A stretch of 64,000 nucleotides of DNA from Hormiphora californensis (GCA_020137815.1 CM035351.1:558001-622000), one strand, 5' to 3'. Shown: positions 9,073-55,633, counted from the stretch's first letter. Program-made: numbers and translations. Notes: generated by a model not told the origin, from the letters alone.

Positions 9073-22430
<13,358 letters not shown>

Positions 22431-22530
22431 NNNNNNNNNNNNNNNNNNNNNNNNNNNNNNNNNNNNNNNNNNNNNNNNNNNNNNNNNNNNNNNNNNNNNN
22501 NNNNNNNNNNNNNNNNNNNNNNNNNNNNNN
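22431..22530. other. Assembly gap (100 N); sequence at 22531-23800 is error-rich
   Basis: N run; homopolymer expansions relative to the matching region 21370-22430. Confidence 0.98.
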
Positions 22531-22719
22531 TATCTCTCTCTCCTCTCCTCTCAAATCACTATCTTCCTATTTTTTTCCCCATTGTGAACAACACGTTTTG
22601 TTCCCACAATAACTGTACTTCCCATGGGAAAAAGGGGAATTGGGAAGGGTTGTAGTCCCCACAGTTGTACAAAATACACACTATTTTGCCTCTATTTGCC
22701 TTCTCCCCCCTTTTCTTTA

Positions 22720-24763
22720 GCACCCTTTCCCCTTTTTTTAAGCGGCGGTTGGCGTTGGGAGAAAACTTTTTGTTATATGGGACCCTGGCTGTTTTCCCTA
22801 AGGCACTCCCCCACCGGCCTCTCCCTTTATAACCTTCACCAGGATACCTGTGATACTCAACCCCGGCCTCCTCCCCGGGTAACTCCCCCGGGGGTAATTT
22901 AAACAATGGTGAAGGGTGGCAACTTCTTGTATTGGTTTTTGGAAAAATTTGTTTTGGTGGGGGGGTTTTTGAAATACATTCAGTTTTATTGCAGCTCTTT
23001 GTTTGCGTGCTTGATCAACTCTGTTCCCTATTAGGCATTACAACCTGGGGCTCACCCAAACCCTAACACCCGCTTTCAAGCAGAGTCGACATCGAGATAG
23101 AGGTATAACCATTTTGATTTTTTACTGCAAAAAAAACCAGTTATTGATTTCAAAAATTTTTTAAACCCCCTTTTTTTTTCCTTTTTTAAAAACCATTGGA
23201 GACCCCTCTCACCCCCCTTAAAAAACTTTTAAATTGGGGGGGTTGACGTGACGAATTATCCATTGCACATTCTGGACAAAATACCGGATCCCTGAAACGG
23301 GGAAAGGATGAGGAGGGGGTGGATGTGGAGACTGTGGAGGAATTCGTCATCAAGGAATTCTCTTTTAAAATTTGGGTTTGAGTAGGGTTTGTTCGTTTTG
23401 GGGGCCCCTTTGTAAACACAATTTTTTTTAAAAACCCGGGGTTTTTGGGGGTTCTTTTTTAACACAAATCCCAATCTACAAAAACCCTTCTCTCCTTTAT
23501 GAACACGATTTTTCTGGCGATAAAAGCTCCCATTGCATAAAAAGGGGGGCAGTACCCTTATATTCACTCCCCCACGCAGGTGGGCATGCTCTAAGGGTTT
23601 CAAAACCGATCCTCTCCCCACACAAATCGGGGAACAAAGGTTTAGTTGGGATACACCAAAACACCCCAATCCCTTTAAAATTTTTCGGGTCCCCTGACCC
23701 CCCAATCCCCCAAACCCCCCCCCCCCCCCCCGGGGGGGCCCCCTGGGGCGGGGGAAAAAAAGGTCCACCCTAATATATCTCCCACCCCCCCCCCCCCCAT
23801 TAGAGTTGCAGCAGTAACCCAGTTTGAAGCAACATTTGCCCGCCATGCCTTCCCCTGTTTCGATGAGCCACAATACAAGGCCTCCTTTTCTATCTCTATA
23901 GTTCGAGATACAGGACACACAGCACTCAGGTAATACATCAATGATTGCTATTGAAACTATTTCGAGATGTGAATTAGTGATCAAATATAGATTTAAAAGT
24001 GCCAACTGTTTGGAAATCTATTTTTAGAAACCAAATTGAAATCCCCCCTCATCAGTAACATGCCGGAGAGAGACACGGAGGAGTACGGTAGTGATGGTTT
24101 GGTGCAGGTAAACTTTGAGAAAAGTGTCAAGATGAGCACCTACCTGGTCGCCTTCATGATCATGGACTTTACCAGCAAATCTGCAACCACAAAATCAGGA
24201 AAACTGGTTAGTTTACAAGATTCACTTCTGCTTTAATATTATATAGTTTGTGTGTGCCTCAGTTTCACATTGTTCCTCCATCCCCTCTTCTTCTTCAGCC
24301 TCACTTCACCCCTCACCCTCTCTCAGATCAGGATCTGGTCTCGGTCCGACACGGAACACCAGACAGATTATGCACTGAAGTGTGCCGTGAATCTAATGAA
24401 CTATTACGAAGAGAAGTTTGGAATTGAGTTCCCTCTTCCGAAGCAAGGTAAGTGTGACGGCGAGAGTGACTTTTTAGACCCCTCGTCTCTCTCTGGCTTT
24501 TATAACGGCTGATGTGTCTATAGATAAGTTGCCCAATGTCTACTGTTCTTGTGGTTCTAGTATTTGTAAACCCTTCCACAGATCTAGTTGCGGTACCTGA
24601 TTTCAACTCGGGAGCTATGGAGAACTGGGGTCTGATAACATATCGTGAGACGAGCATTCTGTACGACCCAACCCAGACGAGTAGCGCATTTAAACGGCGT
24701 GTTGTGAGCGTTGTGGCACATGAAATGGCCCATCAGTGGTTTGGAAACCTCGTTACTATGAAG
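22720..24763 (+). pseudogene. Inverted partial second copy (allele or paralog) of the aminopeptidase, from the TM exon to the HEXXH exon
   Basis: Same peptides ([38 protein letters not shown]) with synonymous differences and partly different introns; no downstream exons after the transposon at 24790. Confidence 0.75.
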
Positions 24764-24789
24764 GTACGTTAATAATTGGGATAACTTAA

Positions 24790-27380
24790 GGGTACACCTC
24801 GGCGAAATTTTTGTCGAGTGCCCGCTTAGCTCACCATATGAGGTTGTAGGGCATACCCAGGGAACCTCAAATATGCAATTTTAGCCCTTAACTCGAATTC
24901 ATATTTTTGCTATAGCCCCCCAAAGTTGGAAAAAATAGGACCCTAAATCGCGGTTTTTAAGGTTCCTAAATTTTAATTTCAGGGCTAGAAGGCTGAAATT
25001 TTGGGGATTTGTAGAGGATACCAAGGTGTATCAGCCCAAGCAGTGATTTTTGAAATGGTGCTCAATTTTTTGTCTGAGACCATTTTACATTTTTTCGACT
25101 TTGAGGCCATATTTGGACATGTTCCTATGGACCGTTAAGGCTAAAAATCGGACATTTGGTGCTCCTAACAATTGTCAAAGTAGCCACAAATTTTCAGGAG
25201 GTCCGAATTTGAAATGTGGCGTACAGGTTTCTTTTTGTAAAGCACATATTTTAGGAAAACTTAAAATGGCTATATCTCAAAAACGGTAGGTCCTAACGAT
25301 CTAATTTTGTGCTAAATCGATTCAGCGGGTCCGATTTTGGGGGGGTCGTCTCTTAGACATTTTGCTCTAAGTCTAACCGTTTTTCAGAAATCTTATTTTA
25401 AGGTTTGTACATGTTTAGCAGAAATAGGTGAGATTAGCTCTAGCTAGAACATTTCTGCTAAAAGTGTACAAATCTTAAAAAACGATTTCTGGAAAAACGG
25501 TTAGACTTAGAGCAAAATGTCTAAGAGACGACCCCCCCCCCCCCCAAATCGGACCCGCTGAATCGATTTAGCACAAAATTAGATCGCTAGGACCTACCGT
25601 TTTTGAGATATAGCCATTTTAAGTTTTCCTAAAATATGTGCTTTACAAAAAGAAACCTGTACGCCACATTTCAAATTCGGACCTCCTGAAAATTTGTGGC
25701 TACTTTGACAATTGTTAGGAGCACCAAATGTCCGATTTTTAGCCTTAACGGTCCATATAAGCCTGTCAAAACGTGTTTCGACCTTGAACTCACTAGAGGC
25801 AAGCCAATTCCGGTTGTAAATCCTAGGTATAGGCCTCCTGAACATAAAAAACCAAAATGTCAGTCTCGATTATTTGGGGGAAGGTGTGTAATTAGCCCCT
25901 AATTGATTGATAATTGAGCATAAGGGAAAGAACGCTGTATCTACCCTTAGGAAAGGAGTAGAGACAAAATTAAGGGCAGCAAAATGTTCAGCGTCTTCGC
26001 ATTAGTGGGGGTAGGTGCCGGAATTAAGTCTCTATCTCATCTGGTTAATTAGATAATTGGATAATTAGGTTTGCACATAACCGTTTTTAGGCCATATGGC
26101 TATAGCCACTTAGGAATGGAGTAGAGACAAAACTGAGGGCACTAAAATGATCAGCGTCCTCAAATTAGTGGGGGTAGGTGCTGAAATTAAGTCTCTATCT
26201 CATCCGGTTAATTAGATAATTGGATAATTAGGTTTGCACATAACCGTTTTTAGGCTATATGGCTATAGCCACTTAGGAATGGTTTAGAGGCTTTTCATTG
26301 GTGCCATTTTGTAGGCAATAGCCAAGTTATGGGGGGTCGACCTCGGACTTTTAAGCTCTATCTCCAACCGGTTAGCCGTTATTTGGCTTAAACGATGCTC
26401 AAAATCGGGCTTTTTACCGTTTTTCGCTCATTTTGAGCATCGATTAAGCCCAATAACGGCTAAACGGTTGGAGATAGAGCTTAAAAGTCCGACGTCGACC
26501 CCCCATAACTTGGCTATTGCCTACAAAATGGCACCAATGAAAAGCCTCTAAACCATTCCTAAGTGGCTATAGCTATATAACCTAAAAACGGTTATGTGCA
26601 AACCTAATTATCCAATTATCTAATTAACTGGATGAGATAAAGACTTAATTTCAGCACCTACCCCCACTAATTTAAGGACGCTGATCATTTTAGTGCCCTC
26701 GGTTTTGTCTCTACTCCATTCCTAAGTGGCTATAGCCATATGGCCTAAAAACGGTTATGCGCAAACCTAATTATCCAATTATCTAATTAACCAGATGAGA
26801 TAGAGACTTAATTCCGGCACCTACCCCCACTAATGCGAAGACGCTGAACATTTTGCTGCCCTTAATTTTGTCTCTACTCCTTTCCTAAGGGTAGATACAG
26901 CGTTCTTTCCCTTATGCTCAATTATCAATCAATTAGGGGCTAATTACACACCTTCCCCCAAATAATTGAGACTGACATTTTGGTTTTTTATGTTCAGGAG
27001 GCCTATACCTAAGATTTACAACCGGAATTGGCTTGCCTCTAGTGACTTCTAGGTTTGGCCAAATTTCGACACGTTTTGACAGGCTTAATAGGAACATGTC
27101 CAAATATGGCCTCAAAGTCGAAAAAATGTAAAATGGTCTCAGACAAAAAATTGAGCCCATTGCCAAAACACTGCTTGGGCTGATACACCTGGTATCCTCT
27201 ACAAATCCCCAAATTTCCGCCATGTAGCCCTGAAATTAAAATTTAGGACCTTAAAAACCGCGATTTAGTGTCCTATTTTTTCCAACTTGGGGTTCTATAG
27301 CAAAATATGAATTCGATGTTAAGGGCTAAAATGGCATTTGAGGTCCCCTGGGTATGCCCTACAACCCATATGTGAGCTAA
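24790..27380. mobile_element. Branched foldback Kolobok-like element (A-B-B'-C-C'-A'), same family as 3523-4910
   Basis: TTAA 24786-24789 then GGGTACACC; outer arms ~24826-25127 / 27088-27380; inner hairpins ~25128-25757 and ~25758-27087; right terminus lost in a poly-C tract. Confidence 0.8.
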
Positions 27381-27400
27381 AACAAGTGGGGCCCCCCCCG

Positions 27401-27455
<55 letters not shown>

Positions 27456-27457
<2 letters not shown>

Positions 27458-27580
27458 GACAAAAAATGGTAGGAGAAAGTGAGAAATAGGCTAGGAACGG
27501 ATGGTGCAGGGGATGTCAGCGTTCCCTAATCTAGCTATCATTTCCCCGAAATTCGCCCGTAGGGCGAACGGGCCTACTAG
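27456..27580 (+). mobile_element. Helitron-like 3' terminus
   Basis: Hairpin GCCCGT-AGGGCGA-ACGGGC followed by CTACTAG|T at 27580; the 5' end is not visible. Confidence 0.6.
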
Positions 27581-27622
27581 TTATTACAATCCACAAAGGA
27601 TGTACAAATTAGAAAGGACCTA

Positions 27623-28415
27623 TAGTAGAGTCGATAACTACATCGACCTCTCCCAATTGTTCCAGTTTTTGTCACATCTGTTTGGAGCCTCGACACGACC
27701 TCTAAACAGGTGTTACTTTTTCACAAACTGTTTTCATCTTGGTGTAATCAGCAGTTGAAATGTTGCTAATCATAACAAAAACCTGACTAAATTTTTTCAA
27801 CTTGGGGTAAAACCATGGGTGTCAAAAGTTAGCTCTAGGTCCCCTGAGTAACCATCCGGAGACTCTAAGAGATATTTCAAGCCGTTCTCCCGTAATCATT
27901 AATCCCGGTGGAGAAAAAAATACAATGCGGACGTACGTGAGCGCTGGCAGGCTGTTTACATGTTATTGTATGTCTCTCACTCTCTCTGGAAAAACCGCAC
28001 GTGCGGTTGCGCCGCGCGAGATAACTCTTTCTCAAGGGGGAGAAAAGAGAGAGACGCACATTAACGTTATACATTAAAGTTGAGGTTGTAGGCAATTGCA
28101 CGTACGTCCATACTCAAATATGTGCTCTACCGGGATTAATGATTACAGGAGAACGGCTTGAAATATCTCTTGGAGTCTCCGGATGGTTACTCAGGGGACC
28201 TAGAGCTAACTTTTGACACCCATGGTTTTACCCCAAGTTGAAAAAATTTAGTCAGGTTTTTGTTATGATTAGCAACATTTCAACTGCTGATTACACCAAG
28301 ATGAAAACAGTTTGTGAAAAAGTAACACCTGTTTAGAGGTCGTGTCGAGGCTCCAAACTGATGTGACAAAAACTGGAACAATTGGGAGAGGTCGATGTAG
28401 TTATCGACTCTACTA
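27623..28415. mobile_element. Palindromic MITE with ~285-bp arms (possible TA TSD)
   Basis: TAGTAGAGTCGATAACTACATCG ... CGATGTAGTTATCGACTCTACTA; arms near identical. Confidence 0.85.
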
Positions 28416-28494
28416 CTACTTTACAAACTACAATTCTGTGAATGTTGGTACATACCTTATTTTCATAATCATATCTGTGAATGATGGTACATAC

Positions 28495-28603
28495 CTTATT
28501 TTCATATCGGTGAATGATTGAATTACTGAAGATATCATCATCTGCATCGCTATCATCTGACGCGAACTCCGTCAATCGCAGCTCCTCTGGGCGTGGCATG
28601 CCC
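28495..28603 (-). CDS. Isolated exon MPRPEELRLTEFASDDSDADDDIFSNSIIHRYENK; candidate first exon (cytoplasmic tail) of the aminopeptidase
   Basis: Acceptor TTTTGTAGTAG|GGGCATG and donor AAG|GTATGT; same strand as, and upstream of, the TM exon. The assignment is inferred. Confidence 0.45.
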
Positions 28604-28679: not shown

Positions 28680-29510
28680 CGCATGCCCCTACTACTACCA
28701 AATAGAGATTTAGAATATTGTGGGCGTGGCATGCCCCTACTACTACTACCAAATAGAGATTTAGATTATTGTGGGCGTGGCATGCCCCTACTACTACCAA
28801 ATAGAGAGTTAGATTGTTGTGGGCGTGGCATGCCCCTACTACCAAATAGAGAGTTAGAATATTGTGGGCGTGGCATGCCCCTACTACTACCAAATAGAGA
28901 TTCAGATTGTTGTGGGCGTGGCATGCCCCTACTACTACCAAATAGAGAGTTAGAATATTGTGGGCGTGGCATGCCCCTACTACTACCAAATAGAGATTCA
29001 GATTGTTGTGGGCGTGGCATGCCCCTACTACTACCAAATAGAGAGTTAGAATATTGTGGGCGTGGCATGCCCCTACTACTACTACCAAATAGAGAGTTAG
29101 AATATTGTGGGCGTGGCATGCCCCTACTACTACTACCAAATAGAGAGTTAGAATATTGTGGGCGTGGCATGCCCCTACTACTACTACCAAATAGAGAGTT
29201 AGAATATTGTGGGCGTGGCATGCCCCTACTACTACCAAATAGAGAGTTAGAATATTGTGGGCGTGGCATGCCCCTACTACTACCAAATAGAGAGTTAGAA
29301 TATTGTGGGCGTGGCATGCCCCTACTACTACTACCAAATAGAGAGTTAGAATATTGTGGGCGTGGCATGCCCCTACTACTACTACCAAATAGAGAGTTAG
29401 AATATTGTGGGCGTGGCATGCCCCTACTACTACTACCAAATAGAGAGTTAGAATATTGTGGGCGTGGCATGCCCCTACTACTACTACCAAATAGAGATTC
29501 AGATTGTTGT
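28680..29510 (-). repeat. 45/48/51-bp minisatellite (~17 copies) whose unit is the 3' splice acceptor plus the first 15 nt of the 28603 exon
   Basis: Unit ACAATATTCTAACTCTCTATTTGGTAG(TAG)n|GGGCATGCCACGCCC versus the real junction ATTCTCTATTTTGTAGTAG|GGGCATGCCACGCCCAGAG. Confidence 0.92.
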
Positions 29511-30820
29511 GTAACAACAAGATGATGAATGATGTGTACTGTGTAGCAATGTTGTAATGTGTATTTGAATCATGGTGCAACATATATAGCGGCGTTTGTG
29601 GCTGCATCAAGTACACATCAAGTATTTACTGAGGCTCGAGTGTTCTCGACCCTCCAACACTGGATTCTTCCCTCACGTTTTAAGAGAGGGTTGGAACAAG
29701 GCAAGAGAGTGGGCATGGGTAAAAAACATTAATAAAAAGTTACATTTAACAATATAATTCCAAAAATATAGTGCTATACTAATAGTAGGTAAGGGAAACC
29801 TCAAGCAACAATTTTGTGTTATTTCCCACGGTCATAGCTCCTTCTCAATATAGAGACTCTTGTCAGCCCCCCAGGAGGTGGAGCGTGGGAAATATTGCTG
29901 GGGTTTAACTTTGAACTACCTAATGTGTTACAAACTACCCTTCTACAATGTGGAAGGATAGTTTGTAATCTAAAAACGGAACAAGCGGGCTGCGAGACGA
30001 AACAGTTTGCTTTCCTCTGACGGGGGACTGTGGTGCATGTCCTAGTCCTAATAAAATGGCTAGGTACCAAACTACCAAACCACTCAACTGTTTTGGCTAA
30101 ATCAAAAAGTATCTGATACGGCATAACCTGAACCCTAGCTAAAAAAGTACCCTGCACTAAAATGGTTCTAACCACCAAACCACTCAACCGTTTTGGCTAA
30201 CTTAACATTTATCTGATAGGAAATCGCAAGCCCTAACCCTGTCTCCAGCCCAAATCCTAGCCCTAACGCTACTTTAGCCCTAACGGCTAACCCTAAAACC
30301 GTGAGTGCTGCCACTCAAAGGTTTTGAGTCAAAACACCCTGATTTCAACGCCTCTCACATGTTAACATGTTAACGTGCCTGTTAAAAACTGTTATCATTA
30401 GTCTCCGGGGTCATCATCTCCGGGGTCTTCGGGCCAGAGCCCGAAGAGTTTTAGTGATCGCAATGACATTAACATTTTATACATGATTAAAAACAATAAC
30501 CAGAATTAATTTATTATACCCAATTTATGTACAGATAAGATTGATTTCTATATCCATTTTACTAATTGAACCGGTACCCCGGCTTTCGCAAATGTTAACG
30601 TGTGTAAAATGCGTTGAAAATTATGAAGATCGCAATTTCACACGTTTGGGGGTGATAACTTCAAAAAGTATGACTTTTAACACCCGGATCGTATTGAAAA
30701 AAAGGCCCAAAATTACTTTGCAAAAAACAATAAGAAAAATATTTTCAGTGCCTTCTTCCTTGGTTCCTCCACTTCTCAAGCTATGCTCCTCTACCGTGAA
30801 CCGTCTACGATCCTCAGGTC

Positions 30821-30960
30821 ACTAAAGTGAAAGCGAAACAACAACGAACTGGCTGCGCGTCGCGCATTCGTTGCGCATAACGATCTCTCCGGTGAGATCG
30901 TTATGCGCAACGTTGCGGGATGCGCAGCCAGTTCGTTGTTGTTTCGCTTACACTTTAGTT
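30821..30960. mobile_element. 140-bp hairpin MITE-like element
   Basis: ACTAAAGTG..AGCGAAACAACAACGAACTGGCTGCGC ... GCGCAGCCAGTTCGTTGTTGTTTCGCT..CACTTTAGT. Confidence 0.75.
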
Positions 30961-30991
30961 CGGTGCCAAAATCGAAAAATTAAGAGTTCGG

Positions 30992-32110
30992 GGCAGGTGA
31001 GTAGAACTTCGCTCCTAATAAAAGGCTGCAATAAAAGGCTGCAATAAAAGGCTGCAGAAAAAGGCTGCAATAAAAGGCTGCAATAAAAGGCTGCAATAAA
31101 AGGCTGCAAGGGATCACTATCCAACCAGACTAAAGCGGGGGATAGACCGAATCGTCCTCCCCTAATAGTGTTTCGTATCACGTATCGGCTGTAGTGAGAC
31201 CGAATCACCCTCCCCTAACTATAGTGATTCGTGTCACGTATCCAACTAGACCATAGGCAATAGAAAGAGACCGAGATAGAGAGCGAGTACGATTGAGAAC
31301 TGAGAGTGTGAAAAATCAGAATCACGGTATGGTATCACGTACCATGGTATCCTCTAATGAAAAGCGGTTACCAATTGACAATGAGACCTCATCGGTCCCG
31401 ATACGTGATTCTCTACCGCTATGTATTCTCCATTAGTCTTTCCGTATCGATCCACGATTCAGTAGAGGTAGTCAGTAACTACTGAGAGTGTTGGTCTAAT
31501 GAGGTAGGGTAGATCTATTGATTGAGCGTGTAGCACAATCACACGTGAACCACCCAACCACTTGGTTCACCTATCATAGTATTATGTGTGATTCCGCTCT
31601 ACTGAATTGTGTACATAAAGACTATTGGCGAATAACGGTAGAAAATCAGTAATCACGTATTGGCACCGATTAGGTCAAATTATAGGTAACCGCCTTTCAT
31701 TTAATTAATTAGAGGATATCATGAAACGTGATACAATACTTGATTAGTCGTCCATGATTCGGATCTCTCACTCTCACCTCTCTAACTCTCTATCTCCGTC
31801 TATCTACCGCCTATGGTTTAGTTGGATACCAGGCACGAATCACTATAATTAGGGGCGGGTGATTCGGTCTCTCTACCGCTTATGGTAGAAAGCGATACGT
31901 GAAACAAAACACTATTAGGGGAGGACGATTCGGTCTATCTCCTGCTTTAGTACTTTAGTCCAGTTGGATATGTGATCCATTGCAGCCTTTTATTGCAGCC
32001 TTTTATTGCAGCCTTTTATTGCAGCCTTTTTCTGCAGCCTTTTATTGCAGCCTTTTTCTGCAGCCTTTTATTGCAGCCTTTTATTAGGAGCGAAGTTCTA
32101 CTCACCTGCC
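30992..32110. mobile_element. Non-autonomous TIR element with 8-bp TSD and subterminal 13-bp tandem repeats (Merlin/hAT/Mutator-like)
   Basis: TSD GAGTTCGG at 30984-30991 and 32111-32118; TIR GGCAGGTGAGTAGAACTTCGCTCCTAAT; (AATAAAAGGCTGC)n in both arms; the interior is an imperfect palindrome. Confidence 0.88.
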
Positions 32111-33407
32111 GAGTTCGGTGCTTGGCAAACGTTGCGGGCCCCCGATAGCGCGGGATAAGGCAGCGTTTTTCAAGTTCGGTGCCAAAATTTGGGTTTTTAA
32201 AAAGCCCGAACGCGAATTTTTTAAAAATCTTGTTGCGCGCGCGATTAGATCCGAAGGATAAACAATACTTGCGCGCAGTGGGTTCGAGATTTAAAACAAG
32301 CATTTTTCGCGCGTTACGTCAATTTTAGCAAACTTTTGGTTCGGCAATTTGTGTTTTCCACCGTCAGAGACAGAGTAGCCCGTCAAATTTCAGGACCTGT
32401 CTTGCAATGTTTTGGGGGTTATACAAATCTAAACTCGATAATATTTCTGACAGAAAACGTTTAAAAGGTGTCCGTAATGAACACATAATAATTCATGAAT
32501 ACAGACGCTTTAATAACAACACACATACTCTCTCACACTCACATACACACTCTCTTTCTCTCCTTTTCTCTTTCTCTCACACACACACACTCTCCATCAC
32601 TCAGTCACACATGTGTGGAATTGAACGTATCCCATACATTAATAACAGTGTCATTATCAGTAACAAAAACATGAATTAAACAGATTCATTGCCTCTCTAC
32701 CATCTCTCTCTCTCTCTCTCAGTAAGTTCATAATATTCCTTCAGTATCTTCATTATTATTCTAGCAGTATCTTCATTATATATCCTGTCCAGTGACAGTA
32801 ATCAAATCATCTTCATCTCTCGTACACTGCACCAATGGAGGCTGCTGCACAACATCAACTGGGCCAATCATCACCATCATTATTAATTATTCTTTATGGC
32901 GGGAATATCAAAAATAAATTCATAGTGTCACGTGATTATTAGCTATCACTTATCATATAATAATCGATGCTAAGTTACCATACTAGTGATACACCTCTCT
33001 TACTACAATATTCTATCTCCCTCTCTCTCCTCTTCTCTCTTTCTCTTCTCTCTTTCTCTATCTCTATCTCTATCTCTCTCCTCTTCTCTCTCTCGGTCCA
33101 CCACACGCACAACTCCCACATGGCGCTGTAAGGCCCCATGCGAGAACAGGGTTAAATCCCCCGAGCCCGGATCCTGTTGGATCTGAGGGCCCGGGGGGCC
33201 TGCGGAGTAAAGGTAGGTAGAACTCTCTCTCTCTCTTTCTGTCTCTTCTTGTACTATCATCTCCCTCTATCACTACCACTAACATCCTCCTAGAATTGAA
33301 TGCAGGAGCAGTCCAAATACACGAGTCTTTAATTTACGTCGTCCTAATTGGTCAATTAGTTACCTAACTAATCCGTTATATTTCTATCCTCTTTACACCA
33401 CGACATC

Positions 33408-36400
33408 TCAACTGGGTGACAGCTCGAACGGATATGGGTTACTGTCATTGTAAGCATCCCAGTGTGTAAAGGTATCCGTTAGTTGATCAGTGAGGTGCCC
33501 AAATTCAAGGAAATCAAAGTAAGCACTGAGTAGATCCCGAGCGAACAGGTTTATAAACATGACCTGTGATTTGGGGATGTTATCAAGAGATGGGAAGGAC
33601 TGGGGTAGTTGCCGCTTCTTTTCCTCAGCAATCTGGTCCCGATATTCCAGAATAATCCGGTGGGCCCATGTCCTGGAGAGGGTTGGGACACGTGAGGTGT
33701 TACTGATATCAGCGCACTTGATCGCCATTTTCAGTATCAGTGTCTTATTCTCCTGACTAGCCGGGATCTCCTGCTGCTCTGCTCCCTCTCCGTCTACATT
33801 AGCGTTGACTGCAATGAACCTGTTGTAATACTCAAAGTGCTGGGTCATATCAGTAGCTAGAATCATACTGATGATGGATTTCCGGACCGATTTGAATGTG
33901 TCCCCGTCCAAGTTTTTGAAAATGTTGATATTCTGTTGTTCTGGCGCCTGGGTGGTGATTTTGAAGGCGTGTGCAGCATGGTGACTTTCTAACACCGCAC
34001 TATCGTTGTATAACACCGCTAAGTCATGCTGGGTGTTGCAAAGGAAGGTGTTAGTACGGCCAGGGTGGTCTATATCGTGACAGATAGAGGCGATTAGGAG
34101 AGATAAGAAGTCCATTGGATCGAGGCAGGTCTCCATGCATTCAGAGCGGCAGAAGTAAGCTGCAGCTTGTAACACATCAGCTGCGTGTGTTGAGTTGTGG
34201 TAGCTGTTACTGCTGTGGTAATGGGACTCGACCAGGGCCAGCCAGTTCTTTAGTGTTTGTTCCTCTATCTTGAATATGTTCAACATACCAAACTCTACCA
34301 GGATATCAAAACCGAGGTAGTACAGGGGCCTGAAAAGGGGGGATGAGTGAGGGGTAAAGAATTTAAGAATTGAAGTATAAATATAAACACGTGGGATTGT
34401 GAACATAGTCACTAAGACAATCTAACCAACAACACCTAAACCTACCGACTGCTAGACAACTTCCCTAAACCTACCGACTGCTAGACAACCCCTTCCCTAA
34501 ACCTACCGACTGCTAGACAACCCCTTCCTAAACCTACCGACTGCTAGACAACCCCTTCCTAAACCTACCGACTGCTAGACAACCCCTTCCCTAAACCTAC
34601 CGACTGCTAGACAACCCCTTCCCTAAACCTACCGACTGCTAGACAACCCCTTCCCTAAACCTACCGACTGCTAAAAAAACCCCTTTCCTAACCTACGACT
34701 GCAGAAAACCCCTTTCCTAAAACCTCCCGAGCTAGACATTCCCAAAACCTCCGACTGAGAAAACCCCTCCCTAACCTCCCGACTCTAAAAACCCCCTTTT
34801 CCTAAACCCACCGACTGCTAGACAACTTCCTAAACCTACCGCTGCTAACAACCCCTTCCAAAACCTACGATGCTAGAAAACCCTTCCCTAAACCTACCCG
34901 ACTGCTAGACAACTTTCCTAAACCTCCCCGACTGCTAGAAAACCCCCTTCCCTAAACCTCCGACTGCTAGACAACCCCTTTCCCCCCACCTACCGACTGT
35001 TTTGAAAACCCCCTTTTCCTAAACCTACCGACTGCTAGAAAACCCCCTTTTCCTAAACCTACCGACTGCTAGAAAACCCCCTTTCCAAAACCTACGACTG
35101 CTAGAAAACCCCCAAACCCCCTAACCAAACCGACTGCTAGCAACCCTCCTAAACCTACGACTGCTAGAACACCCTTTCCTAAACCTACCGACTGCTAGAC
35201 AACCCCTTTCCAACCTACCGACGCTAGACAACCCTTCCTAACCACCGACTCTGACAAACCCTAACCCCTAAACCACCGACTGCTAAACCTACCCTCACCC
35301 CTTCCCTAACTACCACCTAGCCCAACCCCTCCTAAACCCCTCTAAACCACCGACTCAGACAACTTCCTAAACCTACCGACTGCTAGACAACAACCCCTAA
35401 ACCTACCGACTGCTAGACAAACTTTCCCTAACCTCCGACCTAACAACCCAAACCACCCGACTGCTAGACAACCCTTTCCCTAACAAACCTACCGACTGCT
35501 AGAAAACACCCTTTCCTAAACCTACCGACTGCTAGACAACCCCTTCCCTAAACCTAACCGACTGCTAGACAACCCCTCCCTACCCCACGTAACCAACCCT
35601 CCACCAACCTACACCCTACACCCCCTCCCAACACTCCACCCCTCAACCCACCTAACCACCTGCTAACCCACCTTCCCCCCAACCTCCGACTCTGACAACC
35701 CCTTCCCTAAACCACCGACTGCTGACAACCACCCCTACCACTGCTAACAACTTCACTAAACTCCGACTGCTAGACAACCCTTCCCTAAACCTACCCGACT
35801 GCTAGCAACCCCTTCCCTAAACCTACCGACTGCTAGACAACCTTTCCTAAACCTACCGACTGCTACCCAACTCCCCTAAACCTACCGACTGCTAGACAAC
35901 CCCTCCACCCCTGCTAACAACCCCTTCCAACCTACCGATGCTAGACACCCCTTCCTAAACCTACCGCTGCTAGACAACCTTCCCTCCACCGACTGCTGAC
36001 AACCCCTTTCCCTAACCTACCGCTGCTAGACAACCCTCTTCTCAAACCTACCGACTGCTAACAACTCTCCCCTAAACCTACCGCGCTAGACAACCCCTTC
36101 CTAAACCTCCACCCAGACAACCCTTCCCACCGACTGCAAACCCCTTTCCAACCTAACGACGGAACCCTTCCCTAAACCTACCGACTGCTAGACAACCCTC
36201 CTACACTGCTAACAACTTCCTAAACCTACCGACTGCTAGAAACCCTTCCAAACCTACCGCTCCTAAACCCCTTCCCTCAGAAACCCTTAAACCACTGCCT
36301 AGACAACTCCCCCAACCCTACCGACTGCTAGACAACTTCCCTAAACCTACCGACTGCTAGACACCCCTTCCCTACCGCTGCTAGCACCCCTTTCCTAACC

Positions 36401-39400
36401 ACCCGACTCTAGACAACCCCTTCCCTAAACATTAAAACACCCTGTCTAGACCAACTCTCAACCTACGACCGACCAACCCCTTCCAACTAAACCTCCCCTA
36501 ACACTCCGTAAAACCCCTTCCAAACCTACCACCTAACACCCTTCCCTAAAACCACCATGCTAGAAATTCCTAAACCTACCGACTGCTAGACAACCCCTTT
36601 CCTAAACCTACCGACTGCTAGCAACCCCTTTCCTAAACCTAACCGACGCTAGACACCCCTTCCCAAACCTACCGACTGCTAACAACCCCTTTCCCCTAAA
36701 CCTACCGACTGCTAGACAACTTCCCACCTACCGACTGCTAGACAACTTCTTCCCCCTAAAACCACCTGATCAACCCCTTCCCTAAACCCACCACTGCTAG
36801 ACCAACTTTTCCTATCCTAACCAACTGCTAGACAACTTACCCCTAATCCCTACGCTAGACAACTTTCCTAACCTACCGACTGCTAAACTTCCAAACACCG
36901 ACTGCTAGACAACTTCCTAACCCTAACACTGCTAAACAACTTCCCTAAACCTTCACTCTACCCAACCCCTCCTAGACAAACCCTCTAAACCCCTCCAAAC
37001 CTACCGACTGCTAGACAACCTCCCTAAACCTACCGACTGCTAGACAACCCTTCCCTAAACCCACTGCTAGAACCCCTCCAAACCACCTCCTAACACCCTT
37101 CCCTAAACCAACCACTGCTAGCCAATCCCTAAACTACCGACTGCTAGCAACCTTCCTAAACCTACCGACTGCTAGACAACCCTTCCTAAACCTACCACTG
37201 CTAGACACCCCTTTCCTAAACCTACCGACTGCAAACACTTCCCCCCACCTACCACTGCTAGACAACCCCTTCCTAACCTACCGACTCCAACCCCTTCCCT
37301 AACCTACACCCCCTACCAAACCCCTAACCCCTAAACCTCCGACTGCAACAACCCAACCCCTAACTCCGACTGCTAACAACCCCTTCCTAAACCTACCGAC
37401 TGCTAGACAACACCCCTAAACCTACCGATGCTACAACCCCTAAACCTACCGACTGTAGACAACCCCTTCCCTAAACCTACCGACTGCTAGACAACCCCTA
37501 ACCCCTAAACCTACCGACTGCTAGACAACCCCTAACCCCTAAACCTACCGACTGCTAGACAACCCCTTCCCTAAACCTACCGACTGCTAGACAACCTTCC
37601 CTAAACCTACCGACTGCTAGACAACCCCTTCCTAAACCTACCGACTGCTAGACAACTTTCCTAAACCTACCGACTGCTAGACAACTTCCCTAAACCTACC
37701 GACTGCTAGACAACCCCTTCCCTAAACCTACCGACTGCTAGACAACCCCTTCCCTAAACCTACCGACTGCTAGACAACCCTTCCCTAAACCTACCGACTG
37801 CTAGACAACCCCTTTCCTAAACCTACCGACTGCTAGACAACCCTTCCTAAACCTACCGACTGCTAGACAACCTTCCCTAAACCTACCGACTGCTAGACAA
37901 CCCCTTCCTAAACCTACCGACTGCTAGACAACTTCCCTAAACCTACCGACTGCTAGACAACCCCTTCCCTAAACCTACCGACTGCTAGACAACCCCTTCC
38001 TAAACCTACCGACTGCTAGACAACCCCTTTCCTAAACCTACCGACTGCTAGACAACTTTCCTAAACCTACCGACTGCTAGACAACCCCTTCCCTAAACCT
38101 ACCGACTGCTAGACAACCCCTTTCCTAAACCTACCGACTGCTAGACAACCCCTTTCCTAAACCTACCGACTGCTAGACAACCCCTTCCTAAACCTACCGA
38201 CTGCTAGACAACCCCTTTCCCCCCACCTACCGACTGCTAGACAACCCCTTTCCTAAACCTACCGACTGCTAGACAACCCCTTCCCTAAACCTACCGACTG
38301 CTAGACAACTTTCCTAAACCTACCGACTGCTAGACAATCCCTTTCCTAAACCTACCGACTGCTAGACAACCCCTTTCCTAAACCTACCGACTGCTAGACA
38401 ACTTCCTAAACCTACCGACTGCTAGACAACCCCTTCCCTAAACCTACCGACTGCTAGACAACCCCTTCCCTAAACCTACCGACTGCTAGACAACCCCTTC
38501 CCTAAACCTACCGACTGCTAGACAACCCCTTCCCTAAACCTACCGACTGCTAGACAACTTCCCTAAACCTACCGACTGCTAGACAACCCCTAACCCCTAA
38601 ACCTACCGACTGCTAGACAACCCCTAAACCTACCGACTGCTAGACAACTTTCCTAAACCTACCGACTGCTAGACAACCCCTTTCCTAAACTTACCGACTG
38701 CTAGACAACTTCCCTAAACCTACCGACTGCTAGACAACCCCTTCCCTAAACCTACCGACTGCTAGACAACCCCTTCCCTAAACCTACCGACTGCTAGACA
38801 ACTTCCCCCCACCTACCGACTGCTAGACAACTTCCCCCCACCTACCGACTGCTAGACAATCTAACCAACAACCCCTAAACCTACCGACTACTAGACAACT
38901 TTTCCAGTTCGAAGATATCGTAATCCCACTCTTTCCGTTTCGTGAGATTATCCTGGATTAACACAGGCAGAGAGGTCATACTACTGCTGAAGGCCACCAT
39001 CGATTCTGTTGAAAAAGAGGGAAATATTAACAGGAGGGGAGGGGAGAAAACAACTTTATAAAAATATAATAGTAGGGGGTGATGAGGAGGGGGAGGGGAG
39101 GGAAACAGCTATACATATGAGGAGGAGGAGGGGAGGGACACAACTATACAAAATGAGGAGGGGGAGGGGAGGGACACAACTATACAAAATGAGGAGGGGG
39201 AGGGGAGGGACACAACTATATATCACGAATAAAATGATTGCGTTATGTTATATATCGGATACTAATTAACGGGTACAGATTGTGCAATAATGATGGTGGG
39301 GCATCCGTCACATACAGGCAAAAAGGGGAGGGGAGAAATAGCAAGTACTAAAATATGCAACCTGGGTACCTCTAACCGTCACATGTACAGGTAAAAAAGG

Positions 39401-40536
39401 GAGGGAGAAAGGAGCAAAAAGGGGAGGGGAAATAGTAATACCTCTGTGTGATAAGATGGTATCCCCGGTAAGGGATGGTCTGGTATTCCGACCCTCCATC
39501 AGCCCATCCATGAAACCCAGCGCCTCTGGATCCTCTGTTAGACTGGTGGATCCAGTGGTGTAGAGTTCTGAGGATCGTAGCATGCCCATCATGTTCTCTA
39601 TTAGATTGGGAGGTAACTGGGGGCTCGTATCCTGGAGGTTCCGTAACATGCCCAGTATCTGGAGAGGGAGTTGATTTAGGGCACAAAACCACAATTTAGG
39701 GCACAAAACCACAATTTAGGGCACACAACCACAATTTAGGGCACGAAACCACCATTTAGGGCACAAAACCACAACACCCACAATCCACATAACACACAAC
39801 CCCCAGTTGAAAATGTAACCCCATGCCGACCGTGGGGGGGGGTTGCCATGGTGATATTTGGTGACCATGACAACCCCCTTACCAACCATCATCCACACAA
39901 GTACCTTAATAATAGGGGCATCCACTTGTTTCGAATAGCGGCGACTTTGTGTGTTACTAAGACTATTTATCGAGGTATTCGATGACTCTGTCCTCACTCT
40001 CCCATTACTCATTCTTCGCATGCTGTTTCCACCTGATTTACTGTAGCAGTTCTTGCAGGCGGGGTTCGATTCTTGGCGACATGTCACGAAATGGGAGGGT
40101 CTAAAGGGGAGAGTAAGACATGTTACGAAATGGGGGCCGGGATGTGTCACAGGTCAGATCGAGACGAGTACTAATAAATTTATATGGCAGTGACGGCATT
40201 GCAATGACGTCACTCTAATATAAAGGGTGTACTAGAGATGATGCTGTACCTTGACATCTCTCCATCAAAGATTGGTAGTATTTTCATCTCCACTGAAACT
40301 GGTTCCTGGCCCTGTCGATTGTTAAACACCAAACCGTCCCAGCCCTTACCATCAACCTTCGAGCGAGATATCACGTCGTGTATACCCTGAAATAGAGATA
40401 TGATGTATAATGACGTGGTGTACATGAAATTATGAGTATTTCCCACCACGCACTACCGTCCTTGCTATCTATCCATAGCCCAGTGCTAATTTACATACAC
40501 CAGAGACCGACGGAAGTAATTGCCACCACGAAGAGA

Positions 40537-40602
<66 letters not shown>

Positions 40603-43600
40603 GGAGAGAGAGAGAGAGAGAAAAGAAGAAGAATACCACATGGGACAGTACATGAAACACTGAACACTGAACAAGGGGAGATAAAAACCAGAAAGTGGAA
40701 GAATTGAAAAGATAGAATCCATTATTGCCGAAATGAGGATGAGAAGAAAATATAAAAAGAACCAGAGATAGAGAGAGGGAGATAGAGAGAGAGGCTAGAG
40801 GAGGAGAGAAAAAAAGAAGATAGAAATGAACCAGTAATATGCGTGTATAGAGACGAATGAATGAGAGGAATGTATTACCTGTGCGGTCCGTTCTTCATTA
40901 ATAAGCACATCAGTAGAACTGCCGACAATATCGCTACTTTTAAAGCCAGTCAACTTCTCAAACGCAGGATTAACATACTGGGGGGGGGGTCGTCACCTTT
41001 TTTTTTGCCCACATTTGCCCACATTTGCCCACATGGGCAAACTGAAATCTCAAAAAACAGGTATAATGTGGGCAAAGTGGGCAAAAAGTGGGCAAAAATA
41101 TTATAAGCATCAAAACTTTACCAGAAAACCCTCTGTGACAAATGTTTTTCACCTCCAATGTCTTCCAAGAGGTCCCCTCTATCGATTCCAACCGATAATT
41201 AATGTACTTACTTATGACTTAGGGTTGATAAGGCTCCATGTCCGACTGGACAAAAGTGGGCAAAAATTTTTGGCAAAATTAGGCAAAGGCCAGTGATTTT
41301 TCGTCATTTTGGGGCTATTTAGGGAACTGATACATAACAAAGGTTTTCCACTTGCATTGTACTCCAATGGGGTCCCAGAAAAACCAGAAAAATTTTCCAC
41401 TCCAATTATGTGAGAAACGTGCCTAAAATGACCAATTTTCCTAATTTTACCAACATATTTTGCCCATTTTTCCCAGTTGGATATGGAGCCTTATCAACCC
41501 TGAGCAAATAAATTATCGGTTGGAATCGATAGGGGGGACCTCTAGGAGGACATTAGTGGTGAAAAACCTTTGTGACAGACGATTACCTGGTTGATAGCAT
41601 ATATTTTTTATGGATTTAATTTTTTTTGCCTACTTTTGCCTACTTTTGCCCACTTTTGCCCACTTTTGCCCACTTTTGCCCATGTGGGCAAATTCAAAAT
41701 TTAAGAATAATGTGGGCAGTGGGCAAAAAAAAAGGTGACGTACCCCCCATACTGGGGGGGGGGGGGATGGAATTAGAAATTACACATGTAGGACATGGGC
41801 AGGATCAATAACATACTGGGGGAGTGATGGGGGGTTAACATACTGGGGGGGAGTGTGATGGAATTAGAAATCACACATGAAGGACATGGGCCCTTGCCAG
41901 AGCTATGATAAAGTCCAATTTTTAATGGTGTGAACATAACTAGAAATCGAACTTTACCAGGGCTGTAATCTCTATTCCAATGTATCTCAACAGCTGTATC
42001 ATGTTGTAAGATTCATCTTATTTTCACTGGTTTGAGGTGGTATTAATTTTATTACTCACGGAACAAATTCCATCTGCATCTGTAATATCAATACTCTCTT
42101 TACTATCCCGTAACAGTTGAAATAACGTATTAGCCACTCTGAAATGTGTAAATTGTCAAGATGGGATGCCATGATCATGTCAGGATGGCATCCCATTGGC
42201 GATCCTTCAGAACGTATTATCTGTCAAGTCATCGACTACAATGCTCCCAACTGTCTCTACTACTATAATACTACCTCTCTTAGAACACAGCAAGTTCCAA
42301 GTTAACATTTAGCCCTGTCTGAAGAAAAGAATACAACCCAGACTACATCTCTTAGTTCAACTTACGAGAGCTTGAGTGCTGTCTGAACCTCGCCACTATC
42401 TATCATGACAATCTCGTTTAGACAGGCGCCTCTGTCGTGGTTCTCCAGATACCGCTGAGAGGGGAGAAGGGAGTTAGACGGGGGAGAAGGGGGTTAGCGA
42501 GAGAGAGAAGGGGGTTAGCTAGGGGAGAGAAATAAGAGATGGGAACTGGTTTGAGTGGAATGAAGGAGAGAGGGAGGGGAGTGGAAGGTAGCCTAGTCAT
42601 GAACCATTTATTCCTATTTTATAGAATTATTTAACCAGTTAGTTACACGGGGGGGGGGGGTTACCATGGTTACCCCAGTTACACAGGGTGGTTACCATAG
42701 TTACACACTCACCCTGTTAAATCCCATGTCTAAATAGGGTCGCACCGTCGGTTCCTCGCACCACCGTAATCTGAGAGATATTATCTTCATTACCAAACAC
42801 AATATAATCTCAATTCTTTCGATGAAGTATTTCACAATTCATCCTACTGCCCCAATATCTCAAAAGGCTAAAACTCCCCAATATTATATTACTCACATGG
42901 CAGGGCAGACAGCTAGTGCGATGACACTGTTGAAGGCAGGTTTACTTCTCAATCTCCTCACCATTTGTTCCCCTAACCCCGCTACGGGGACCCTCATATC
43001 AACCACTACTATGTGGTGCCTCTTCTTTTCTAACTGATCCATAGCTGCATCCACAGTGTTAGCCATACTGGCCTTGAAACCACCCTTCCTACAGGCCCAC
43101 TGGAAGGCCTCACTCTGACCATCCTCGCCAGGAAACACCAGTAGAACCTGAGAGAGATGTGTTTGTGTGTGATAACTGGGTTAGCACCTGAGAGAGATGT
43201 GTTTGTGTCATTACTGGGTTAGCACCTGATGGAGATGTGTTTGTGTCATTACTGGGTTAGGGACTGGGTTAGCACCTGATGAGAGATGTGTTTGTGTGAT
43301 TACTGGGTTAGGTACTGGGTTAGCACCTGATGAGAGATGTGTTTGTGTGTGATTACTGGGTTAGGGACTGGGTTAGCACCTGATGGAGATGTGTTTGTGT
43401 CATTACTGGGTTAGGGACTGGGTTAGCACCTGATGAGAGATGTGTTTGTGTGTGATAACTGGGTTAGGGACTGGGTTAGCACCTGATGAGAGATGTGTTT
43501 GTGTGTCATTACTGGGTTAGGGACTGGGTTAGCACCTGATGAGAGATGTGTTTGTGTGTCATTACTGGGTTAGGGACTGGGTTAGCACCTGATGAGAGAT

Positions 43601-43898
43601 GTGTTTGTGTGTGATTACTGGGTTAGGGACTGGGTTAGCACCTGATGAGAGATGTGTTTGTGTGGGGGCTGATTCGGAGGTAGAATAGTTCAATTAAAAT
43701 CAACTTACCCTCGATATCTCCTGATTTATTACAATAGGACCTAGTCCGATCTGTCGTTTTTCTGCCTGTGAAAATGAGACGTGAGTTAGAAATAAATTAA
43801 CATTACTAAATTAACATTACTATTTACTGTGTAAAATTTGTTTAGTTTGAACCTAGATAGGGTACAAACTAAACAAGATTGTGTTTGTGTACCTTCAT
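33408..43898 (-). CDS. PDE8: cAMP phosphodiesterase, PDE8-type (REC-PAS-catalytic); start uncertain
   Basis: Exons give IGLGPIV, the REC domain VLLVFPGEDGQSEAFQWAC...EEPTVRPYLDMGFNR|RYLEN...GEV, the PAS domain YVNPAFEKLTGF, DAPIIK, LRSSELY, WDYDIFELEKLSSSR|PLYYLG, and catalytic YHNSTHAADV, HDIDHPGRTN, LESHH, ILATDM, IKCADISN, KSQ. Confidence 0.9.
34420..38900 (-). repeat. ~4.4-kb intronic satellite, unit ~29-36 bp (roughly 140 copies), equal to the PDE8 exon end plus GT donor
   Basis: Minus-strand unit GTTGTCTAGCAGTCG|GTAGGTTTAGGGAAGGG versus the real junction AAGTTGTCTAGTAGTCG|GTAGGTTTAGGGG at 38885/38884. The centre (~34680-37450) is error-rich. Confidence 0.95.
39674..39775. repeat. 21-bp tandem repeat (ATTTAGGGCACAAAACCACA) x5 next to an acceptor
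   Basis: Read directly. Confidence 0.9.
40982..41747. mobile_element. Non-autonomous TIR element with 8-bp TSD, inserted exactly on the PDE8 PAS-exon acceptor
   Basis: TSD CATACTGG at 40974-40981 and 41748-41755; TIR GGGGGT(A)CGTCACCTTTTTTTTTGCCCAC; internal TTTGCCCAC repeats. Confidence 0.82.
43147..43662 (-). repeat. ~53-bp tandem repeat (10 extra copies) of the PDE8 REC-exon acceptor region
   Basis: Unit GCTAACCCAGT(CCCTAACCCAGT)AATCACACACAAACACATCTCTCATCAG|GT versus the real ...ACACATCTCTCTCAG|GTTCTA at 43148/43147. Confidence 0.92.
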
Positions 43899-48514: not shown

Positions 48515-51500
48515 GGGGGGGCCTAGCAGGTATACCCCATTTAGACCAAACACAAACTGCCGTCTCACTCGTCACATGAAATGTATGATATGAACAAACA
48601 AACATTCATCTCAGTACAAACACACATATCCAACCGACTTGAGATGACCATTATATCCATAATCCAACAGGTGTGTCATGGGTCTAAAAAGAGAAAATAA
48701 GTTGAGAAGAAGGACGAAAATGTGGGGAGAGAGTATGGGACCCTGGCCTTTGAAAGTGACATATATCGGAGCTTCTTCAATATATAACTTATTATTAATA
48801 TCAAAGTTATTGAACTCCACAACCTATCCGTGTCCATCCCTCCCTCCCTATATCCATCTTCTCCCTTACCCTCTAGTCTCTCTATCTGTACTTTTTAAAT
48901 TCATACATTCCTCCTCCCTCGTCAGATGTGACGATTGTGTTATGCTTTCGGAGGGATTATTTATAAATTAGGCTTTGAAATGTTCGAACAAGCATGATTC
49001 CTCTTTCGGAGAGCGAGAGAAAAAAATATGACATACTGGCTCTCTATCTTTTTGTCTGTCTCACTGCAGCAGCACGCAAATCATTTTTCTAGTACGGTGT
49101 TTAAAAGAGGGTAGGGGAGAGAGAAAGACCTCTCGAAAGTACTCATACGCGTATGTAGAGAGAATTCTCTCCCGAATTTGATACTGGAGAGGAATACGCG
49201 TATGAGTGGTTTCAAATTTTTCTAAGAATTTACCATTGTTCTCATAATCGTATTAAAGTACTCATATCAGTATCTACCAGAGAGCACTTGGAGAGCGAAT
49301 CCTCTACTGTTCAAAATACTCATACTCGTATGCCATAATGTTTTTGGCATTCAGTACTTGGCTAAAGTCATAAATGAGTTTGCAGATTCAAGTACTGACT
49401 ATTTATATTTGACCAAACATTAAGGTGAGAGTATACAATTTTACAGACCCAGCAGTTAAAAAATTAAACATCGTGACAAAGTTTTGAATGTTTGACACTA
49501 ATCAACCTTCAAAATCTAAAATCTTATCTTCTAATTGAGGGCTGATTTGGCTCAAATTTTAATACACATTTTTTACATTAGTCCTTGTGAGTTATAGTCG
49601 TTCAGAATTGATGAACTCGTATGCCGTAATGCTTTGGTATTCAGTGCCAGTTTCAAACGACTTGGGCAATTGCTCGGAAAATTATATTTGACCAAATATC
49701 TAGGTGACTCACCTAATAGGTGGTAATAAAATTACCCCTCAGCATTGATATGACTCACAGAGTAATGCAATAAAAGGGGTGACTTCGTAACCAACCTAAT
49801 AGGTGAGAGTAAACAATTCTACAGACCCAAAGCAGTTATAAAATTAAATATTGTGGCATAGTTTGGAATGTTTGTCACTCATCAACCATTAAAATCTTAT
49901 CATTTAATAGAGTGCTGATTTGGCACAAACACATTTTACACATAGTCATTGTTAGTATGTCGTTCAGAATTAATGAACGGGAGTCGAAGAAACCACTGTT
50001 CTAAATTTTGTATTTCTACCTCAGCCATACAAAGCAGGGGTATGTATGGGTCCAAGTATCTCGACCTTGAACTGGTCTTGATCCGTGGCAAAGAATGGCA
50101 CCCGTGAAGGGTGTGGGTCTTCCCTCAAACTGCACACACCATACGGTTAAGTTGTAGTTGCCTAACCCCTGGGTGACTTACATCACACATTACCACCTCG
50201 GTGTAGAATTTACACTCATACTCGTATCAAACTACTCATATATGATGTATGAAATTAGGTTATTAGAAACTTCTTGCCGAACCCTGTTGTTTTAAATCTC
50301 CCATCTATTTATTCAGATTTCTAAAATCAACCTAATAGAATTGCTAATTATTCATTGTGGTCATTAGAAATTCTACTCATACTCGTATCAAAAGTACTCA
50401 TACCTGTATGAACTATGGAAAGTTCTCATGCTCTTACTTCATGACTAAATAATTAGAGACTATCATCGAAGACTTATATCTTAAATCTCTCAACTTTTCC
50501 ATCAAAATTACTAACTTCAAACTGATGGAAATGTATAACGTCTGCATCAATTGACAAAGTACTCATACTCGTATGATAAGTACTCATACCTGTATGGGCG
50601 GAAAACGCCTTAAAAACGCCTCTACGAAGTTTTAATTAACACAGTTTTCTGGGCCATTCATGACAACAATAAAACAAATTGATTCGAGACCAACTTAACT
50701 TAAAAACTAAAAGTCAAATTTTTCCGTCGAAAATTTTGCCAGTGGTACCCCTTGCCAAAAAAACACCCAAAAATAAAAATGTCTCCCGTTCTTTAATATC
50801 TTGGCATGGTTGCACCCGGTAAATAGTGAACTTTTAAAATTCCGGCTACCAGCTTTGAATGCCTAAAAACATAGACGGTATTTGGGTCAGAAGTGCAAAT
50901 ACGAGTATGAGTACTTTTCATACGAGTATGAGTACAATTTCAAATTACCATACCAATTGGATATTCTAGTAAGCCAGATTAATCTATTTCACAGGAATAA
51001 TGGGAGATTTAAGACATAAGTCTTCGATAGTAAATCTCTAATTATTTAGTCATGTATTCAGGGCATGAGAACTTCCCCATAGTTCATACAGGTATGAGTA
51101 CTTTTGATACGAGTATGAGTAGAATTTCAAGTGACCACATTCAATGACACTGCTTTTGGTTTATTTTAGAAATCTGAATAAATAGATGGGAGATTTAACA
51201 TAACAGGGTTCGGCAATAAGTTTCTAATAACATGTACATGAAAAATCCTGTTTTTCATACAGATTACAGTTATGAGCAGGACTTGCAATTCTTGTCACCC
51301 GGCCCAAATACATGGCCTGCACAATTTCCGGACGGAGATAGTCTCGAGACCATCGTTAGGCCTGATCTTATTGCGTTACCACGAGTGGTGAGGGAATTAA
51401 CCTGGTGGGAGTAGAAGAGACGACAGGCCATATTGTATAGCGGATGATCAAGATTCAAGGGCCAAGGCCCATGAGATCGAGCACCGACCTGGAAAGAGAC

Positions 51501-54500: not shown

Positions 54501-55448
54501 ATATCGAAGACTTATGTCTTAAATCTCCCACTTTTCCATCAAAATCACTTAATTTAAACTGATGGAAGTGTAGTTACTAGAAACTGTACTCATACTCGTA
54601 TGAAAATTACTCATACCCGTATCAAATGTTGTATGATTTTATTTACTTTTGATACGGTTTTGGTAATGGAAACTTTCTACCAAGGTTTTATTTATCAAAT
54701 CTCCCATTATTCCTGTGAAATAGATTAATCTGGCTTACTAGAATATCCGATTGGTATGGTAATTTGAAATTGTACTCATACTCGTATGAAAAGTACTCAT
54801 ACTCGTATTTACACTTCCGACCCAAATACCGTCTATGTTTTTAGGCATTCAAAGCTGGTAGCCGGAATTTTAAAAGTTCACTATTTACCGGGTGCAACCA
54901 TGCCAAGATATTAAAGAACGGGAGACATTTTTATTTTTGGGTGTTTTTTTGGCAAGGGGTACCACTGGCAAAATTTTCGACGGAAAAATTTGACTTTTAG
55001 TTTTTAAGTTAAGTTGGTCTCGAATCAATTTGTTTTATTGTTGTCATGAATGGCCCAGAAAACTGTGTTAATTAAAACTTCGTAGAGGCGTTTTTTAAGG
55101 CGTTTTACCGCCCATACAGGTATGAGTACTTATCATACGAGTATGAGTACTTTGTCACTTGATGCAGACGTTATACATTTCCATCAGTTTGAAGTAAGTA
55201 ATTTTGATGGAAAAGTTGGAGATTTAAGATATAAGTCTTTGATAGTAAGTCTCTAATTATTTAGTCATGAAGTAAGGGCATGAGAACTTTCCATAGTTCA
55301 TACAGGTATGAGTACTTTTGATACGAGTATGAGTAGAATTTCTAATGACCACAATGAATAATTAGCAATTCTATTAGGTTGATTTTAGAAATCTGAATAA
55401 ATAAATGGTAGATTTAAGATAACAGGGTTCGGCAAGAAGTTGCTAATA

Positions 55449-55620
55449 CAGTCGGACCCCGATTTACCGGGCCCCGATTTACCGGAACCCCGATTTACCG
55501 GGAGGATAAATTTCCCCCGATCTAGGAAATTAACGGTATTTGACCCCGATATACCGGACACCCCGATTTACCGGGCAAAACCCTTTCCCCCGAGCATCCC
55601 GGTAAATCGGGGTCCGACTG
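55449..55620. mobile_element. 172-bp Tc1/mariner(pogo)-type MITE
   Basis: TA|CAGTCGGACCCCGATTTACCGGG ... CCCGGTAAATCGGGGTCCGACTG|TA; the empty site is visible in the opposite arm at ~50256-50280. Confidence 0.92.
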
Positions 55621-55633
55621 TAACCTAACTTAA

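Follow-up and report, generated by a model that had tools for sequence, protein, structure and literature searches.

A probable splice-junction minisatellite of about 140 units in a PDE8-like gene of the ctenophore Hormiphora californensis

Recursive-splicing ratchet points and micro-exons place AG and GT signals close together inside long introns. Splice signals are also copied in tandem repeats that begin at an exon border. In the passages cited here, the intron 7 of human F7 carries a 37-bp VNTR, and 6-16 (25 pseudo-sites), CBS IVS13 (15–20), LMNB2 (10–15) and PDGF intron 4 (16–18) are given as similar human cases (PMC1557585). Mutation tests described there for F7 showed selection of the most upstream donor, even where other copies are stronger, and a few pseudo-sites are used in 6-16 and CBS (PMC1557585). 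In amphioxus, repeats known as 'mirages' occur in Adh3, the globins BflGb6 and BflGb9, troponin C and PGBD5, with splicing undisturbed according to the cited passages (PMC3087553, PMC3902484). One ctenophore genome paper gives 13% tandem repeats, with no such case in the passages cited (PMC8527503), and no ctenophore case of such splice-junction repeats was found in the literature.

Here it is proposed that a tandem array in a PDE8-like intron of the ctenophore Hormiphora californensis is a splice-junction minisatellite of this kind (a 'mirage' of the F7 type), spliced at its first donor only in the assembled mRNA and likely neutral, a reading that is considered very probable. The array lies in a stretch of 64,000 nucleotides (CM035351.1:558001-622000), the whole of which was analysed and is referred to as the window.

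Host gene and anatomy of the array

The exons flanking the array encode a protein with the Pfam domains PDEase_I and PDE8A_N, and the product is 72% identical to the Mnemiopsis leidyi protein P0007. In the protein search, the best 7 of 2,461 matches were 66–73% identical, followed by fish proteins (46–52%); the one species name visible among these seven is that of the ctenophore Mnemiopsis leidyi. By tblastn, the junction LEKLSSSR/PLYYLG is colinear with relatives, having no extra residues. The array-bearing intron extends over 34330-38884 (4,555 nt), and these bounds, already given in the preliminary description, are confirmed by homology and by spliced contigs (Table 1).

The array spans 34435-38884 on the minus strand and fills 97% of the intron, with about 142–145 head-to-tail copies of a unit of 27–39 nt. 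TRF reported a 32-mer with 144.8 copies (34435-38859), and the 45 clean units have a mean period of 31.2 nt, which corresponds by scaling to about 142 copies; the array of some 140 copies of a 5' splice junction that the preliminary description had placed in this intron is confirmed by both measures. Its length of 4.4 kb is the length as assembled. On the minus strand, each unit consists of the donor and a G-rich intronic spacer of variable length, followed by the last 14 exon bases, or 17 in some variants, so that the exon end is indeed repeated, at 14 nt rather than the roughly 15 nt first claimed. The authentic exon end has AGT and the copies have AGC, a difference pointed out earlier and present in the sequence. 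A 16-nt junction pattern gave 83 matches in the whole window (0.04 expected by chance), all within 34440-38894 on the minus strand. The rest of the window has no copy by this pattern, and the match of the units to the exon end and donor, and to nowhere else in the window, fits an origin from the local exon end.

Downstream of the authentic donor, 84 donors are intact in the assembled sequence, fewer than the approximately 140 decoy donors of the preliminary description, although the number of units (about 142–145) agrees with it. One of these downstream copies has the donor GTAAGT, which is nearer to the consensus than the authentic GTAGGT. In each unit, TAG and CAG precede the donor by 6 and 3 nt, and the donor hexamer itself contains TAG-GT.

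The two ends of the array are clean, with exact cores in 41 of 45 units of the 5' part and in all 7 of the 3' part. Of the intact donors, 31 lie in the 2,799 nt between 34671 and 37469, whereas the end parts have 44 (5' part, 1,415 nt) and 8 (3' part, 236 nt). This noisy middle differs mostly by single-base deletions and has sharp borders. Because of these borders and the deletion-rich error spectrum, the middle 2.8 kb of the array is likely uncorrected, or unpolished, long-read sequence.

Other repeats were found in the window. Repeated branch-point-like and pyrimidine-tract sequences lie just upstream of acceptors at 1265-1479, 42459-42528 and 39674-39774. Long inverted repeats, some of them with internal tandem arrays, occur at 30820-32300, 25946-26889, 50021-56397 and 3518-4915 and look like foldback or MITE-type elements. 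In the region of the aminopeptidase gene, a 51-mer array of 16 copies (28681-29511), just upstream of the first coding exon, copies the start codon region and a possible acceptor. The first intron of this gene contains an inverted copy (22768-24778), 76–93% identical, of several of its exons (20239-22429); it adjoins an assembly gap (100 N at 22431-22530) and is either a real duplicate or an unmerged haplotype. A papain-family protease gene (12900-14001) lies within an intron of the aminopeptidase gene, in the same orientation.

Table 1. Positions of the array, its host gene and the donor-spanning duplications in the window.
Feature	Position	Strand	Remarks
PDE8-like phosphodiesterase gene	33408..43765	-	at least 11 coding exons, 5' end partial; Pfam, homology, tblastn map
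Last coding exon	33408..34329	-	catalytic domain
Unique 3' intron part	34330..34434	-	pyrimidine tract and acceptor; common to organism B
Clean 3' array part	34435..34670	-	8 intact donors
Noisy middle of array	34671..37469	-	probably unpolished long-read sequence
Clean 5' array part	37470..38884	-	45 units of 27–39 nt; first unit 39 nt with long spacer
Copy with GTAAGT donor	38689..38704	-	
Authentic donor	38879..38894	-	cleaved at 38885/38884; sole junction with AGT; used in X1 and X3 contigs
Upstream exon	38885..39005	-	ends in LEKLSSS-R, phase 2; its final 14 nt supply the exonic portion of the unit
Second splice-site repeat, PDE8 gene	43142..43664	-	53-mer, 8.7 copies, copying acceptor and CTAAC motifs ahead of true exon start 43147
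Aminopeptidase gene	9097-28599		mapped with Bolinopsis protein
Donor-spanning duplication, aminopeptidase	28438-28518		period 39
Donor-spanning duplication, aminopeptidase	20196-20283		period 46
Donor-spanning duplication, aminopeptidase	15716-15837		period 43
Donor-spanning duplication, aminopeptidase	15280-15560		period 154

Array-bearing and array-free forms and the origin of the array

Sequencing contigs were examined from five of the 16 listed runs (X1, X3, X4, X5 and X8); the metatranscriptomes X7, X12, X13 and X15, as well as X2, X6, X9-X11, X14 and X16, lie outside the analysis. In X4, from the same sample of organism A as X1 and X3, the summed unit depth is 5,163–8,190, versus about 40–190 on the unique flanks, and in X5, a second sample of organism A, it reaches 260,912, versus 290–430 on the flanks. 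These depths show that many array copies exist in the read data, with no number derivable from them. Of 259 X5 contigs examined, only 4 have a partial fit; this argues against a dispersed satellite or many dispersed sites, as judged from the window and the contig ends. Several percent of exon bases distinguish the two samples carrying the array (in one X5 contig, 8 of 149), and the array is therefore not transient.

Organism B (X8) has an intron at the same place. One X8 contig connects the upstream exon to the unique 3' intron segment by way of one 27-nt donor unit, without an array, and the bin depths predicted from this layout matched in 3 of 3 unfitted bins. The single unit is not a collapsed repeat, because 27 nt is shorter than the 31-letter word. 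In one haplotype of organism B the intron hence measures roughly 0.13 kb, has a single donor and lacks the array. Another X8 contig stops 30 letters into a variant donor that carries AGC and the purine-rich spacer known from the array; given its shortness, an array in that haplotype is possible. The comparison suggests that AGC is the older base and that the exon changed later, the base itself being unreadable in the bridging X8 contig.

Two further observations come from these contigs. An X5 contig (depth 108) at 34293-34342 reads successively as a CT microsatellite, the acceptor plus 37 exon bases, another acceptor copy of 28 nt and the array; acceptor copies possibly lie beside the donor array in this sample, a layout read from two tables. 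The PDE8 exon pieces at 39443-39531 and 39905-40110 have summed depths of about 1,000–30,000 in X4 and X5, with divergent letters and foreign loose ends, and X1 has a low-depth, spliced and internally deleted copy of them. This looks like multi-copy PDE8 exon fragments elsewhere, carried perhaps by a transposon.

In the proposed origin, slippage at an older, short intron would have duplicated a short piece covering its donor and the adjoining exon end, and the duplicate would then have grown to about 140 copies. A long spacer ending in TTGTCT is common to the first unit (39 nt) and the sequence past the last unit, and this hexamer is also present in the exon end. The initial duplication may have been of 39 nt, between the TTGTCT of the exon end and the one 25 nt into the intron, and deletions and unequal exchange would afterwards have produced the units of 27–34 nt. 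The spacer variants come in recurrent runs, as is usual in minisatellite turnover. A telomeric seed, considered for the TTAGGG-like words of the spacer, was rejected since the single donor of organism B has the same start and needs no telomeric insertion.

Donor duplications are also present in the aminopeptidase gene, where the donors 28494, 20252, 15808 and 15486 begin short duplications of 39–154 nt with 1–2 extra copies, at sites placed by tblastn and GT/AG and not by RNA. Counting the donors that are first of their family, 5 of 30 compare with 36 of 1,037 other GT sites, and without the PDE8 finding, 4 of 29 donors start a local tandem duplication (p of 0.02, 0.03 and 0.10 in three settings). 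This test was chosen after seeing a first control that counted every GT copy inside the arrays and gave no contrast (5/30 versus 178/1,152), and the control hits are clustered; one uncertain PDE8 acceptor was omitted and one aminopeptidase donor was never mapped. Duplications at acceptors (1–2 of 30) did not differ significantly from the background of about 3.5%. The donor bias in the duplications of the window is a weak hint, and the broader proposal, that this ctenophore genome duplicates donors by a biased and possibly splicing-linked mutational process and that its spliceosome takes the foremost among 140 identical donors spread over 4.4 kb, is regarded as unlikely. Should the bias hold across the genome, both first-donor selection and the formation of mirages would extend as far as the sister group of other animals, and a natural series would be available for testing donor choice against copy number.

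Donor use in RNA and alternative readings

The RNA evidence comes from the runs X1 and X3, both of a single organism A sample, studied at the contig level, where rare forms are dropped. Both are labelled 'DNA?' and were treated as RNA because three GT-AG introns are skipped cleanly. The main contigs of X1 (depth 304) and X3 (depth 633) join 38885 directly to 34329; from the acceptor side, the joined letters are those of 38886-38915 in the window, in the AGT form that is unique to the first donor. Joints from an array copy to the acceptor numbered 0 in X1 and 0 in X3, in this one sample and with about three units covered per array end. The junction at the first donor fits a neutral expansion tolerated by normal site choice, which was among the possibilities offered by the preliminary description. 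The first donor would win because it alone has a full exon with an upstream acceptor and is transcribed first, comparable to the upstream-first selection of human F7. Were a copy used directly, the Arg codon would be followed at once by an in-frame TAG, and 0 of the 84 downstream donors leave the frame open, so rare copy use could be hidden, its RNA being degraded unseen, probably through nonsense-mediated decay. Additionally, X3 has a second version of the exon at 34161-34296 (9 differences in 136 nt, depth 156 versus 503), either a divergent allele or a paralog.

The copies might instead compete with the true donor and, through this immediate stop, shared by all 84 intact donors (one of them better in consensus), divert part of the transcript to nonsense-mediated decay, with the array length tuning PDE8 dose. 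Pseudo-site use of this sort is reported for human 6-16 and CBS; however, the F7 pseudo-sites did not compete although they were stronger, as far as the cited passages go (PMC1557585). With no copy joints in X1 or X3, an X1 depth of zero on the array and the array missing from a haplotype of organism B, such dose tuning is quite improbable.

It is highly improbable that the genomic array is much shorter and was inflated by assembly. The length does come from the assembly and the middle 2.8 kb is error-rich, but unit depths in X4 and X5 far above those of the unique flanks indicate many copies in the read data, and non-repeating errors over 2.8 kb would resemble raw long reads rather than a collapsed or copied unit.

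A putative role of the array RNA, nascent or after excision, as a sink for U1 or hnRNP or as a G-quadruplex scaffold would draw on the G-rich sense strand (G4Hunter mean of 0.88, at least 1.2 in 16% of the scoring windows), on a ViennaRNA gain of 20 kcal/mol over 585 nt when quadruplexes are allowed, and on X3 array contigs at 57–66 times the depth of the X3 unique intron. This ratio is of the order expected for a multi-copy unit in unspliced RNA or DNA carry-over, contig depth not being valid as a copy number and used here only as 'many copies', and X1 has no depth on the array. Motifs with four G3 tracts and loops of 1–7 nt numbered 0 in the array, and a canonical G-quadruplex array was rejected on this count; with loops of 1–12 nt there are 9 motifs, all within the noisy middle and none in the clean parts. 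Two-tier G tracts are common, and weak quadruplexes, of two-tier or long-loop forms only, are possible from the sequence, so that the G runs proposed earlier to form quadruplexes keep this weaker potential and lose the canonical motif. The array occupies one intron of a single gene and is missing from one haplotype of organism B. No observation requires a sink function, which is scarcely credible.

Stepwise removal of the intron, or inclusion of micro-exons of 3 or 6 nt, through the AG dinucleotides of each unit (TAG and CAG ahead of the donor and TAG-GT within its hexamer), is almost certainly wrong: in the 19 nt before the unit AG, pyrimidines make up 37% and G occurs 9 times, whereas the 29 real acceptors in the window have 47–95% pyrimidine and 0–3 G, the lack of a pyrimidine tract makes micro-exons and recursive splicing unlikely, no copy joint is present in the RNA contigs, and neither the mRNA nor three groups of ctenophore relatives have an extra residue at the junction. 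Both models, raised in the preliminary description, were rejected on acceptor composition.

As a probably neutral minisatellite, the array illustrates how an intron, through repeated copying of its own donor, can lengthen from 0.1 kb to 4.5 kb with the mRNA unchanged. The array-free form in organism B makes the locus a natural test of the reach of first-donor selection. It is also a warning for annotation, as such arrays yield false exons and stay unpolished in assemblies.

Comparison with known splice-junction repeats

Like ratchet points and micro-exons, the PDE8 array has AG near GT; however, it has no pyrimidine tract, a weak second donor and no RNA support, and a usable acceptor is lacking before each internal donor. 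Three features that define mirages and F7-type repeats, a type that the preliminary description does not mention, are present. The first unit of the tandem repeat lies across the exon-intron border, the splice signal is kept in the copies (84 intact downstream donors), and contigs of X1 and X3, from one sample, show the authentic site in use in mature mRNA. As to length instability, a possible further trait, the units range from 27 to 39 nt, and the array occurs in both samples of organism A but is missing from a haplotype of organism B.

In the cited passages, F7-type VNTRs have the same organization, with a first unit across the border, identical donors after it and use of the most upstream one (PMC1557585). 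The PDE8 array has about 140 copies versus 5–25 in the human F7-type cases described there, and 14 exon nt per unit versus 4 in F7. It also differs in filling 97% of its intron and in its ctenophore host. The amphioxus mirages, as those reports describe them, likewise consist of tandem copies of a donor or acceptor border, with several per genome region and normal mRNA, and the PDE8 copy number is far above the 3–6 units of BflGb6 (PMC3087553, PMC3902484). The PDE8 array is thus a repeat of a known type, larger than the published cases compared, as these are described in the passages cited.
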